The translations under genes and the position numbers were made by a program. This document shows, piece after piece, positions 10,664 through 49,133 of a DNA stretch of 64,000 bases (its first letter is position 1; the number at the start of each line of letters is the position of its first letter). Origin of the DNA: Octopus vulgaris (taxonomy: Eukaryota); contig OX597827.1 of the NCBI GenBank assembly GCA_951406725.2, positions 66,154,001 to 66,218,000 on the forward strand, written 5' to 3'. The notes beneath the pieces are model-generated. The model worked only from the letters and a program-made list of their open reading frames with translations, searched no databases and was not told where the DNA came from.

Positions 10664-10960
10664 GCCGGTGAGCTGGCAGAAACGTTAGCGCGAAATGCGA
10701 AGCGGTATTTCGTCTGCCGCTATGTTCTGAGTTCAATTTCCACCGAAGTCGACTTTGCCTTTCATCCTTTCGGGGTCGATAAATTAAGTACTAGTTCCGC
10801 ACTGGGGTCGATGTAATCGACTTAATCCCTTTGCGTGTCCTTGTTTGTCCACTATGTTTAGCCCCTCGTGGGTAGTAAAGAAATAGGTATTTCGTCTACC
10901 GCTACGATCTGAGTTCAAATTCCGTCGAGGTCGACTTTGCTTTTGTTCTTTCGGGATCGA
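10664..10960 (+). mobile_element. Family-A SINE plus partial second unit (concatemer)
   Basis: Head gccggtgagctggcagaaacgttagc; junction aaagaaataggtatttcgtct at about 10878-10897. Confidence 0.9.
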
Positions 10961-26590: not shown

Positions 26591-26777
26591 GCGGCGTGCT
26601 GGCAGAAACGTTAGCACGCCGGGCGAACTGCGTAGCCGTATTTCGTCTGCCGTTACGTTCTGAGTTCAAACTCCGCCGAGGTCGACTTTGCCTTTCATCC
26701 TTTTGGGGTCGATTAAATAAGTACCAGTTGCGCAGTGGGGTCGATATAATTTCGTCTGCCATTTCGGTCTGAGTTCA
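26591..26777 (+). mobile_element. Family-A SINE, truncated, with restart at atttcgtctgcc
   Basis: Head gcggcgtgctggcagaaacgttagc and core present; after gatataat the sequence re-enters the head (ttcgtctgccatttcggtctgagttca). Confidence 0.85.
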
Positions 26778-28482: not shown

Positions 28483-28718
28483 ACCTATTTCTTTACTACC
28501 CACAAGGGGCTAAACACAGACAGAACAAACCAGGACAGACAAAGGGATTAAGTCGATTATATTGACCCCAGTGCGTAACTGGTACTTATTTAATCGACCC
28601 CGAAAGGATGAAAGGCAAAGTCGACCACGGCGGAATTTGAACTCAGAACGTAAAGACAGACGAAATACCGCTAAGCATTTCGCCAGGCGTGCTAACGTTT
28701 CTGCTAGCTCGCCGCCTT
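28483..28718 (-). mobile_element. Family-A SINE, full length
   Basis: Near-identical to the 1244 copy. Confidence 0.9.
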
Positions 28719-29510: not shown

Positions 29511-30434
29511 TCATTGTAGATACGTAAAATGCTCCATGGGAATGTTTAGCAACCTAAACTTTCGTCGAGATTTTACTACCGATTTCATTTACACCATCCT
29601 CACATCAATCAGATTAGCCATTATTACCATCACAATAATGGAACATATGTTGGGAAGCGCTCTACAGCCCCGCCCCGTCTTCAAGATGACTGTGCAAGAA
29701 GATAAATGAACAATTGTTGCCGTACCAATTGTTATATCGACATTGTTGAAATGAATATACTCTATATACGTTTTGTCCATTTGTCCTTCCATACATCTGT
29801 CTATATGCCTTCCCGGCGATGTGTTTTTCATTTTGACCATTCAACTGTACATTAAAAACAACTGGAGCAGATTTGAATGGCTGCAGTCGACCGTGGTCTA
29901 TTTTCCGTCCCCATTCAACCTTTAGAAGACAACCACCACAGTTTTTTTTTTTTTTTTGTGATACACAAACTATCAAAGCGTAAATCATCAGCAGCGGTAG
30001 TGGCCGCTTAAGGATTATGGAAAGCTTTATTATAATACTGATATCAAGTCATATTCGTTGTCGATCGTGTACATATGGCTGCAAGTGAAAGGTTATTGAT
30101 TATAGACCGATAGTATTCAATGGATTACCAATATAAATAATTGCAGAATAGAAGAGGTCGGCTGCCATTAGATTCATGATAATTGCCAATTTCAGATGTG
30201 TACACAAACACACATCTCATATATATATATATACATATTCCTTTCTCTCTCTCTCCCTCTCTCTCTCTCTCTAACTCTCTCTCTCTTTCTCCTTCTCTCT
30301 CTCTGCTTCACTGTTTCTCACCCTCTTACTATCTGTCTGTCTATCTACCCCACTTTTTTAATCCCCCAAAAGAAAACCTCTACCTTGCAATTTGGCCCCT
30401 CTGTGTTCAGCCATGTGTGGCTAATAACGAGACA

Positions 30435-30721
<287 letters not shown>

Positions 30722-35128: not shown

Positions 35129-35822
35129 AAGAGGTTTTAGAATGAATTTATATTATTTTCTGAAAATATAAACGATTGATTATACCAAATAAACTTTTAA
35201 AAGAATGTGGGAAACATCATTTCACAAATATTTTGGGAAGAAGAGCTCACATTTTTGAAGTGATTTTAAGTGTTTTCAGTTTTTGACATACGCCTATATT
35301 AGCTTAATTTATATAAGAATTCAGTTCTTAAATGAAGTGAGGAATATATTCAGCACAGTTTGTGATACTTCAAAAATTATTCTTGTTATTGTCTTATTCC
35401 ATTTCGAGAAATGGAAATATTATGAATTCCCAATTTCGAACCATCCGTACACGTTACTAAATGAATCATTCCTGAACAATAAATTTGTTCTACATGTAAC
35501 CTAAACCGAAATATTAATTTTGTTCCTATTTCTCCACCATATTTCTGATTGCATTGTTGGCAGGTCAGACATTACCTAAGATTTTCTCTGCCATTCACGT
35601 TTGTATTATTAATACATTCCGGTTCCTTTCCATTTTTAATCATTTAGATCTTGCCCTGTTCTATTATTCCACATACCGTATCACGAAGATTTCCACATAT
35701 TTTTACCCACGTTATTTCTTCTGATGTGAATTTGACCATTGTTAGGGGTATTGCGGATTTCATGCTTGTCTTTTTCGTTCGATGAAACTTAGTGCTTTTA
35801 AAAATTACATTTCTAAATTTCT

Positions 35823-36235
35823 TTTCTTTATTGCCCACAAGGGGCTAAATATAGAGGGGACAAACAAGAACAGACATTGGATTAAGTCGATTACATCGAT
35901 CTCAGTGCATAACTGATACTTATTTAATCGTCCCCGAAGGTGTGCAAGGCAAAGTCGACCTCGGCGGAATTTGAACTCAGAATGTAAAGACAGACGAAAT
36001 ACCTATCTCTTTACTACCCACAAGGGGCTAAACATAGAGGAAACAAACAAGGACAGGCATAGGTACTAAGTCGATTACATCGACCCCAGTGCGTAATTGG
36101 TACTTAATTTATCGACCCCGAAAGAATGAAAGGCAAAGTCGAGATCGGCGGGATTTGAACTCAGAACGTAACGACAGACGAAATACGGCTACGCATTTCG
36201 CCCGACGTGCTAACGTTTCTGCCAGCTCGCAGCTT
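35823..36235 (-). mobile_element. Family-A SINE dimer bounded by one TSD
   Basis: Full unit plus restarted unit (junction about 35995-36010); 16-bp TSD acatttctaaatttct at 35807-35822 and 36239-36254. Confidence 0.92.
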
Positions 36236-37257
36236 TCAACATTTCTAAATTTCTATGAATTTTATGGCTTGTTGTAGGGTTGCAAGGCGTTAGTTTCTTG
36301 AGTCAAAGAGTGTATTGTTGCTACGAGTATTGGTGAATAGAATATGTAACTTTTAATTTTGTCTTCACCCTCAGATTTGCAGATTTTCCACTAAGACTGT
36401 GATTTTGATCTATCTCTCTTTTGTGACGCCATGCTTTATTGTGTTGTTCGTACATTATTGAAATTAGAATTGTAGACGCATGTGCTTAAGCGTCTTTTCA
36501 TTCAGCTCCACTTTTCTTAAAATTCCGTCGGCACAGAACGTATCTACATACCCAGATATACACCAGTTTATAATGACTAAAGTAAACATTCAGGTAGACG
36601 TCGCAATATATTACAGATATTTCATGTAGTAAAATTATCATTCATTATACTCAAAATTATATTTGGTTGTCATTTGCGAATTTCTTCAGTACATTGATGT
36701 CTCGTATTTCGTTTCCATCTTGATGATTAAATTCTATCTAAATAATCAAAACTTTTGCATATCAAAGATTATTTATTCTAATATATTTCAAATGGCATAA
36801 ACATAGAGTCCCACAAGCTACACACGCAGAGATACACACTCACAAACACATACATAATTCGTGCATATACTCACTAATGTACTTTACTTAATAAAACTTC
36901 AAACAGTTTCCAAAATAGGAACATATTTAATACGGGCATCATTTTGAAACAGCACATATTAATAATACTTTCTTTAATTTCAAAACCATTTAGAAATTCG
37001 GTTTCTTTGTTTGTTTTTTTACAATGTTTTTATATACTATCCATCATAGAAATTTTCAATTTTTCCATTCGTTAATATTATAATGCAGATAATGCACTAA
37101 AACACCAAAGGCTTCATCAACCAAGAAACCATAAATGGAATACAAAATCAAGTGCAATTTTGCATTTCATTCCCGCAAGAGTATATATTAGTAGAACTTC
37201 TTGGTTCCAGATGGAAAATAAGTATTTCCTATCATATAAATTTACGTTACTGAGAAA

Positions 37258-47152: not shown

Positions 47153-47390
47153 TATTTCTTTGTTGCCCACAAGGGGCTAAACATAGAGAGGACAAACAAG
47201 GACAGACAAAGGGATTAAGTTGATTACATCGACCCCCCCCCCCAGTATGAAACTGGTACTTTATTTATCGACCCCGAAAGGATGAAAGGTAAAGTCGACC
47301 TCGGCGGAATTTGAACTCATACCGTAACGACAGACGAAATACCGGTAAGCATTTCGCCCGGCGCGCTAACGAGTCTGCCAGCACGCCGCC
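47153..47390 (-). mobile_element. Family-A SINE with TSD
   Basis: 14-bp TSD tactggtttatata at 47139-47152 and 47391-47404. Confidence 0.92.
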
Positions 47391-48854: not shown

Positions 48855-49133
48855 GGCGGCAAGCTAGCAGAAACGTTAGCACGCCGGGCGAAATGCTTAG
48901 CGGTATTTCGTCTGCTGCTACGCTCTGAGTTTAAATTCCGCCGAGGTTGACTTTGCCTTTCATACTTTTGGTGTCGATAAATTAAGTACCGGTTACACAC
49001 TGGGGTCGATGTAATCGACTTAATCCATTTGTCTCTCCTTGTTTGTCCTGTCTGTGTTTAGCCCCTTGTGGATAATAAAGAAACAGGTATTTCGTCTGCC
49101 GCTACGTTCTGTGTTCAAATTCCGCCGAGGTCG
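48855..49133 (+). mobile_element. Family-A SINE plus partial second unit
   Basis: Junction aaagaaacaggtatttcgtctg at about 49077-49098. Confidence 0.9.

Follow-up and report, generated by a model that had tools for sequence, protein, structure and literature searches.

At positions 35807-36254 of the window, that is, the whole 64,000-nucleotide stretch of the Octopus vulgaris genome that was analysed (G000:C14:66154001-66218000), two units of a SINE lie head to tail on the minus strand inside one 16-bp direct repeat (AGAAATTTAGAAATGT), as a preliminary description of this DNA had reported. The SINE, here called family A, is a short, non-coding and dispersed element of very high copy number with a 231-nt consensus, which was computed from 112 copies and supplies the numbering for all consensus positions given below. 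Read along the minus strand, the upstream copy of the target-site duplication (TSD; 36239-36254) starts with AGAAA, the site motif of unit 2's own subfamily (C219/A221), and is followed by a 4-nt spacer (36235-36238), gaps of a few nucleotides being usual for these elements. Unit 1 (36004-36234) is a full-length copy, consensus 1-231, with a head of the G43/C48 type (consensus 1-47; 36188-36234) and a T219/G221 tail. At 36003/36004 this tail re-enters the element at position 48 (tail|GGTATTTC), where GGTAT is the insertion motif of T219 copies, and unit 2 (consensus 48-229; 35823-36003), of the T125/A128 and A200/C219/A221 subfamily, continues to the downstream copy of the same repeat at 35807-35822.

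The two units are identical at 152 of 181 positions (84%) and belong to different subfamilies, with 16 differences from the consensus in unit 1 and 21 in unit 2. Of the three variants that they have in common, two fall at frequently polymorphic sites; the third, at 175, is likewise among the positions listed as common. Since the TSD starts with AGAAA, the signature of unit 2's subfamily, it likely belongs to unit 2 as the older host, and together with GGTAT at the junction, the signature of unit 1, this leads us to infer as the simplest history that unit 2 was inserted first, making the TSD, and that unit 1 came later into its position 48. The head at 36188-36234 was probably supplied by the incoming cDNA and not by the unit 2 host, because the G43/C48 type is absent from all 8 solo copies of unit 2's subfamily (0/8). 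That one TSD means one event does not follow, as any copy that lands within an older one comes to lie between the two TSD copies of its host. For this locus alone, the same picture would result from a jump between two RNAs in a single event, and the case against such a jump is made at the population level. Among the contigs of four other runs, consulted as an allele or orthologue check, both flanks enter the element in two runs and one flank does so in a third, none of these contigs spanning the dimer; for the chain loci, no before-and-after pair (host alone versus chain, in another genome or allele) was obtained.

The re-entries noted earlier near 2220, 10888 and 49087 were located as the same junction at about 2219, 10886 and 49086, all on the plus strand. 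The first is part of a mixed chain (2132-2599) composed of a 5'-truncated A unit (145-231), an A unit from 48/49 and a family-B element entered at position 15 (at 2399), while the other two consist of a full A copy and a restart at 48, ending at consensus 123 (10666-10960; restart at 10886) and at consensus 95 (48855-49133; restart at 49086), with no enclosing TSD found for either. What had been taken for a similar restart near 26750 is a different event, for at 26591-26777 (plus strand) consensus 2-161 is followed by 51-79, so that the donor ends at 161 and not at the tail, and sequence resumes at about 51. Solo A copies on the minus strand lie at 1244-1474, with a TSD that begins CGTAT; at 28486-28716, followed by GGTAT and unique flank, with no TSD found; and at 47153-47390 (end approximate), a C219/A221 copy whose TSD begins TATAT. 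A degraded 3' end of an L1-clade LINE at 30350-30440 (plus strand) has about 42 nt in common with the SINE tail and is followed by (TATC)n.

Fixed restarts and the insertion-site motif

Exact matches to the SINE head number at least 34,887 in the 2.8 Gb genome searched (G000), and a second family, B, has the same first 165 nt as family A with another tail. TSDs of variable length, mostly 12-19 bp, were found for 29 of 71 solo A copies against a null of 2%. Candidate A- and B-box motifs occur at about 11-21 and 73-85; ARAGORN reported no tRNA gene for the SINE, and an Rfam scan of 35700-36400 gave no tRNA match. The head folds into two hairpins (z -3.07), and the family-A consensus is free of any run of four T (T4). 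In the fold of the head at 28640-28713 (minus strand) of the window, both insertion sites discussed below lie at stem-loop borders: loop 1 starts at position 15 and the 3' arm of hairpin 2 at position 48. Octopus OR1/OR2 CORE-SINEs and MetaSINEs are named in the accessible portions of PMC4758252 and PMC4824008. Counts given as unbiased come from 120 arbitrarily placed 10-kb stretches, and the full sample adds stretches picked for junctions or heads, making 474 de-duplicated loci away from stretch edges.

The fixed internal restart proposed from the window holds across the genome, where the exact 20-mer spanning the tail-to-position-48 junction has 39,413 matches and its reversed control none. 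A second fixed restart, at position 15, has 3,699 exact matches and is represented in the window at 2399; the restart is thus fixed, as had been claimed, but at two points and not at one. In the unbiased stretches, SINE sequence follows on 47 of 118 tails, with entry at 48 in 35 cases, at 15 in 8 and at other points in 4. Up to four junctions in a row, spaced 184 bp apart, are present among the matches listed, and the last units of chains often have a different tail, that of family B. Family-B tails, too, enter position 15 of SINE heads (L058 4390, L063 4616 and L152 65), so that use of site 15 is not confined to family A. The junction is indeed self-complementary, but its hairpin is as stable as those of shuffled sequences (z -0.07), and a special structure at this point was rejected on that ground.

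Where tails enter non-SINE flank, GGTAT follows directly in 36 of 128 cases, against a background of 0.00074 per position. The upstream TSD copy also has GGT in 10 of the 12 TSD-bearing cases with a downstream GGT, and the bases after the tail therefore belong to the target. A target logo over 34 loci (TSD score of at least 7, with low-complexity TSDs and one duplicate dropped) reads Y|(G/T)(G/A)TAT, which is matched by C|GGTAT at 47|48 of the head. The restart sequence is thus the ordinary insertion-site motif of the element. After tails of the C219/A221 type, AGAA (restart at 15 or flank) stands in 31 cases and GGT in 7; after those of the T219/G221 type, the counts are 2 for AGAA and 141 for GGT (p 8e-26 for tail type against site, in a sample that takes in loci picked for each of the junctions). 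Tail type is predictive of the site within SINEs as well as in unique DNA. For a target-specific SINE, the accessible part of PMC4494074 asks that over 20% of copies lie beside one target type, and here 43 of 118 tails (36%) are found at 48 or 15.

The motif by itself does not account for the extent of self-targeting. A junction is present in 27 of 61 SINE loci carrying the site, as against 21 insertions at about 1,670 other GGTAT sites, and because of this roughly 35-fold excess the bare GGTAT motif is insufficient. Pairing of tail positions 217-220 with the target, by which GGTA would select GGTAT and C219 tails should take GGCAT, was considered and rejected, because the share of C219 at GGCAT (12 of the first 100 of 1,566 matches) is about the same as that at GGT sites (19 of 196, counting the four main types of tail). 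At L127 4665 and L155, the sequence after the C219-type tails is AGAAACTGAAAG, apparently a site within a different repeat family; at L127 sequence of that family lies on both sides of the SINE.

Make-up and age order of the chains

Comparison of diagnostic mutations between units, which had been suggested as a check, goes against circular templating, since 83 of 98 chains mix subfamilies and only 15 consist of one type throughout. Unit order and type vary freely, and junctions at 48 and at 15 occur together in chains. Of 62 chains, 41 have a last A unit of higher divergence than the first and 17 one of lower divergence (p 0.017); the C219/A221 subfamily (divergence 4.6% vs 3.2%) supplies the last unit in 25 of 67 chains and the first unit in 8. 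Family-B elements are entered by 58 junctions. As last units they show more CpG decay than the A unit preceding them (137/511 vs 76/511; p 3e-6) and more divergence outside CpG (6.3% vs 4.1%; n=56, p 0.009), although the B consensus pools subfamilies and may inflate the B value. In chains ending in A, CpG decay is alike in last (44/229) and first units (40/231). Overall, the 3'-most unit tends to be older. The B last units carry several sub-lineages; the B subtype that ends 31 of the 58 chains is rare on its own, accounting for 2 of 33 solo B copies, as would also be expected from a chimeric A+B master.

Neighbouring units resemble each other beyond chance in some respects. Agreement at 125/128 is 0.61 for adjacent units and 0.48 for shuffled pairs, and two or more rare variants are common to 18 of 92 adjacent pairs (null 0.45%), from which it follows that some units are copies of adjacent units. 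One headless four-unit chain, L002 (G000:C1:5517-8536), starts exactly at 48 and shows staggered variant sharing between neighbours, a pattern that would be expected from successive local duplications. In pairs of a head unit and a B element, host variants are seen in the upstream unit over 50-122, at 22% against 6-8% in shuffled pairs for 81-122, with none beyond 123, which fits a variable crossover or later conversion. Annealing of a TSD overhang confined to 48-66 was rejected, as variant sharing spreads to 122 or further. Donor-type heads are found in 9 of 33 A-ended chains.

A TSD was found for only 15 of the 37 chains ending in A and 16 of the 54 ending in B. Among the 17 chains with a short last unit, 3 have a TSD directly after it. 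At L027 1279 and L030 1222, short restart units are followed by a TSD and the flank is, or adjoins, an antisense SINE; these short units may have arisen by fold-back or twin priming. The identical TSD of the SINEs at two loci about 10 kb apart (L181 1948 and L182 2235) suggests a local segmental duplication.

Forms in which a copy is nested without merging were sought with a pattern of position 48-62 followed closely by a full head, which gave 72 exact matches in the genome. Of 23 distinct loci examined in detail, 14 proved to contain, in order, a host piece, a duplication from 48 (14-28 bp), a short run of additional bases, a complete copy and the rest of the host from 48 onwards, as in L259 (B 6-66, A 1-231, B 48-215); the remaining 9 do not restart at 48. 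In 2 of these 9, a head fragment and a full copy lie inside one non-SINE TSD, and these composite inserts, together with the TSDs after short last units, mean that composite RNAs do move as a unit. The upstream SINE piece is kept in 8 of 135 runs, 7 of these pieces ending between 42 and 82 of the head or restart, and about 127 of the 135 are seamless. A doubled GAAATA, or an internally cut tail followed by ATA, is present at 6 of 166 junctions and is read as a slip where reverse transcription starts. Tandem runs of a 64-65 bp unit, made of the SINE head and the duplicated 48-62, were seen at G000:C10:17996023-17996506 (eight copies), L262 and L273.

Origin of the chains

We consider it likely that the chains grow by repeated self-insertion, through target-primed reverse transcription with a homology-guided seamless 5' join, accompanied by some local duplication and read-through copying. 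Observed directly are the fixed sites that serve as subfamily motifs elsewhere, the mixed subfamilies, the older 3' units and the unmerged forms with their own TSD. A LINE enzyme, of the L1 clade and probably of Tx1 type, would nick a preferred site in the head of an older copy, at position 48 or, for one older subfamily, at position 15, and would there write a new SINE copy by reverse transcription of SINE RNA from its AUA end. The end of the cDNA, identical to the head and body of the host, could then anneal to the host with no need for chance microhomology, and repair would leave host-type or donor-type sequence upstream. The expected outcome is a single head, extra headless units and the original TSD of the host. 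Local duplication or conversion added a minority of the units, and composite or read-through RNAs were in some cases mobilised as well. Local duplication does occur, as the 18 of 92 pairs sharing rare variants, the runs of C48 junctions and the runs of 64-bp head units indicate; likewise, from the lack of T4 and the TSD after a partial unit in 3 of 17 short-ended chains it follows that read-through RNAs are sometimes copied.

The last 42 nt of the SINE (188-229) match the 3' end of LINE elements at 79-86%, and a neighbouring 21-mer has 1,122 exact matches in the genome. A full-length L1-clade LINE lies on the minus strand at about 1593-7710 of L088 (G000:C10:14010001-14020000), with (TATC)n on both sides and with ORF1 and ORF2 each split across frames. 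Endonuclease, RT and zf-RVT domains are found in two frames, all 9 PDB matches are to L1 ORF2 or constructs derived from it, and a homologue search returned unnamed proteins only; this tail-sharing LINE is putatively of the Tx1 group. At L156 (G000:C1:23525-26545), a LINE 3' end joins sequence matching the 5' end of the L088 element, as a head-to-tail pair. (TATC)n follows most of 12 loci of this LINE family, and two tail-based patterns gave no match for it at site 48 genome-wide, although a LINE ending like the SINE would be missed by them. Because it sits in (TATC)n and was never found at site 48, the L088-type LINE is a tail relative of the SINE and their partnership is putative. A site-48 pattern excluding the head and the A tail had 893 matches; most of the 30 that were read are heads or tails with mutations, and no foreign tail recurs among them.

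Three explanations had been offered for the window, and a rolling circle, that is, retrozyme-like reverse transcription around a head-trimmed circular SINE RNA, was among them. The 184-bp unit is fixed, chains such as L002, L070 and L129 are internally homogeneous, and C48 junctions occur in runs at 184-bp spacing, all of which a circle would produce. A circle cut at 47|48 from a copy's own RNA is expected to give C at close to half of the junctions, as exact head counts are 15,981 for G43/C48 and 18,906 for G48; the junctions themselves count 403 with C48 and 39,413 with G48, or about 1%, which argues against circles from a copy's own RNA. The base after solo tails is T, A or C as well as G, so the G is no fixed part of the tail. 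Moreover, most chains begin with a head that a circle would lack, two junction types occur within one chain, and 83 of 98 chains mix types. A retrozyme would have a self-cleaving ribozyme in each unit, and the Rfam scan of 35700-36400 detected no ribozyme family at E up to 10, with two chance-level matches only; it would also use one template per insertion, which disagrees with the 15 uniform chains of 98 and with the 84% identity of the units at 35807-36254. We regard this mechanism as extremely improbable, and as the main source of the chains it is discarded.

The idea of one multimeric master does not survive the two junction types, the two tail families and the variable order. In a broader form, a few multimeric or chimeric masters would be transcribed through and copied whole or primed part-way, the junction being inherited; a consensus without T4, the TSDs after partial units in 3 of 17 short-ended chains, the two composite inserts each inside one TSD and the rarity of the chain-ending B subtype as a solo copy all agree with this. 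Such masters are nevertheless distinctly improbable, as unit order and type vary freely with junctions at 48 and 15 mixed, the B last units comprise several sub-lineages and are older than their A neighbours, and the slippage marks at junctions point to repeated formation. Template jumping, in which one RNA is copied as far as 48 or 15 and synthesis then moves to the 3' end of a second RNA, would create one new TSD in a single event. It suits the mixed subfamilies, a donor-type head with a host-type TSD as at 35807-36254, the similar distances of the two units there from the consensus (16 vs 21) and the lack of a CpG decay difference in A-ended chains. It predicts neither the older 3' units nor the nested forms with their own 14-28 bp duplication, and needs an added assumption for the same motifs at solo sites in unique DNA, so that we think it quite unlikely, though it may account for a share of the loci. 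The microhomology-guided version put forward earlier is accordingly not the main mechanism, given the older 3' units and the TSD-bearing nested forms, but microhomology probably contributes, as does read-through from chains.

A closer relative of the preferred reading holds that a full nested insertion comes first and that the duplicated head is later deleted by recombination or slippage; it is a variant of self-insertion with the same targeting model. Unmerged forms exist and heads are sometimes of donor type (9 of 33 A-ended chains), as it would have it, but nearly all runs (about 127 of 135) are seamless, and with 184-bp tandem units and even 64-bp head tandems persisting in the genome, so near-complete a later deletion of duplicated heads is hard to expect. 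This variant appears unlikely. Going further than self-insertion as such, the SINE could be its own landing pad and guide in a scarless, RNA-directed writing process, in which read-through RNA from chains already present, by providing sequence that matches the target, raises self-targeting about 35-fold over the bare motif and the subfamily site (GGTAT at 48, AGAAA at 15) is inherited through the RNA and not through a changed enzyme. We put this forward as a doubtful but consequential possibility; if true, it would be a natural system of RNA-directed scarless writing, with one nick and homology at both ends, at tens of thousands of loci.

Several consequences follow for the reading of SINE loci. 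A single TSD around a locus does not establish a single insertion, and SINE "dimer subfamilies" can be stacks built by several insertion events, which record the order of subfamily activity with the oldest unit at the 3' end. About one third of family-A insertions are into other SINE copies, a low-harm niche with a single promoter head per locus. Joining at the 5' end is a poorly resolved step of LINE integration with relevance to retrotransposon-based gene writing, and tens of thousands of natural homology-guided 5' joins are here open to statistics.

Relation to known systems

The phenomenon is real and large-scale, likely one of self-nesting retrotransposition rather than concatemer synthesis, and its parts have precedents. 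No description of such chains was found in the literature, Repbase, Dfam and subscription papers being outside the scope of the search, and the chains are absent from the consulted portion of the main text of the 2026 octopus repeat annotation (PMC13282606).

Metazoan non-LTR retrozymes form tandem non-coding units of a few hundred bases. Unlike them, the octopus chains have no hammerhead or other Rfam ribozyme, mixed units and a single head. R2 elements, which insert into 28S genes, use a restriction-like endonuclease. In the accessible part of PMC3774820, more than 80% of R2 joins are precise if target sequence from upstream is present on the RNA, duplicated forms being a minority, and the annealing of target-identical cDNA to the target that gives these precise 5' joins is what we envisage for the SINE. 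The target of R2 is a host gene, whereas the homology of the SINE arises since element and target are of the same family; R2 is also autonomous and has a ribozyme, unlike the octopus SINE. In tandem Alu insertions, the sites used are A-rich tracts and neither copy loses its head. The octopus SINE differs in using a fixed base within its promoter-bearing head and in that the extra head disappears. It is like tandem Alu and other repeat-in-repeat insertions in that each insertion supplies new cleavage sites (PMC12840619, as far as its accessible text goes, which cites El-Sawy and Deininger 2005).

Squamate SINE-derived satellites likewise are tandem arrays of SINE portions with local homogenisation, attributed in the available portion of PMC10702118 to unequal recombination, whereas the octopus chains are short, have fixed-site boundaries and are mostly of mixed subfamilies. 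SINEU-3 of crocodilians is a target-specific SINE moved by Tx1-Mar LINEs of the L1 clade, with a Mariner transposon as its target (PMC4494074, accessible part). With this system, to the extent that the same text describes it, the octopus SINE has in common a preferred site inside another repeat, tandem copies attributed to sequential insertion and two sites according to family. Its targeting is partial, unlike that of SINEU-3 as given there, with 43 of 118 tails at the two sites. The tandem copies of SINEU-3 sandwich a TSD (PMC4494074, same portion), whereas the octopus SINE has its own head as the target and most of its joins are seamless.
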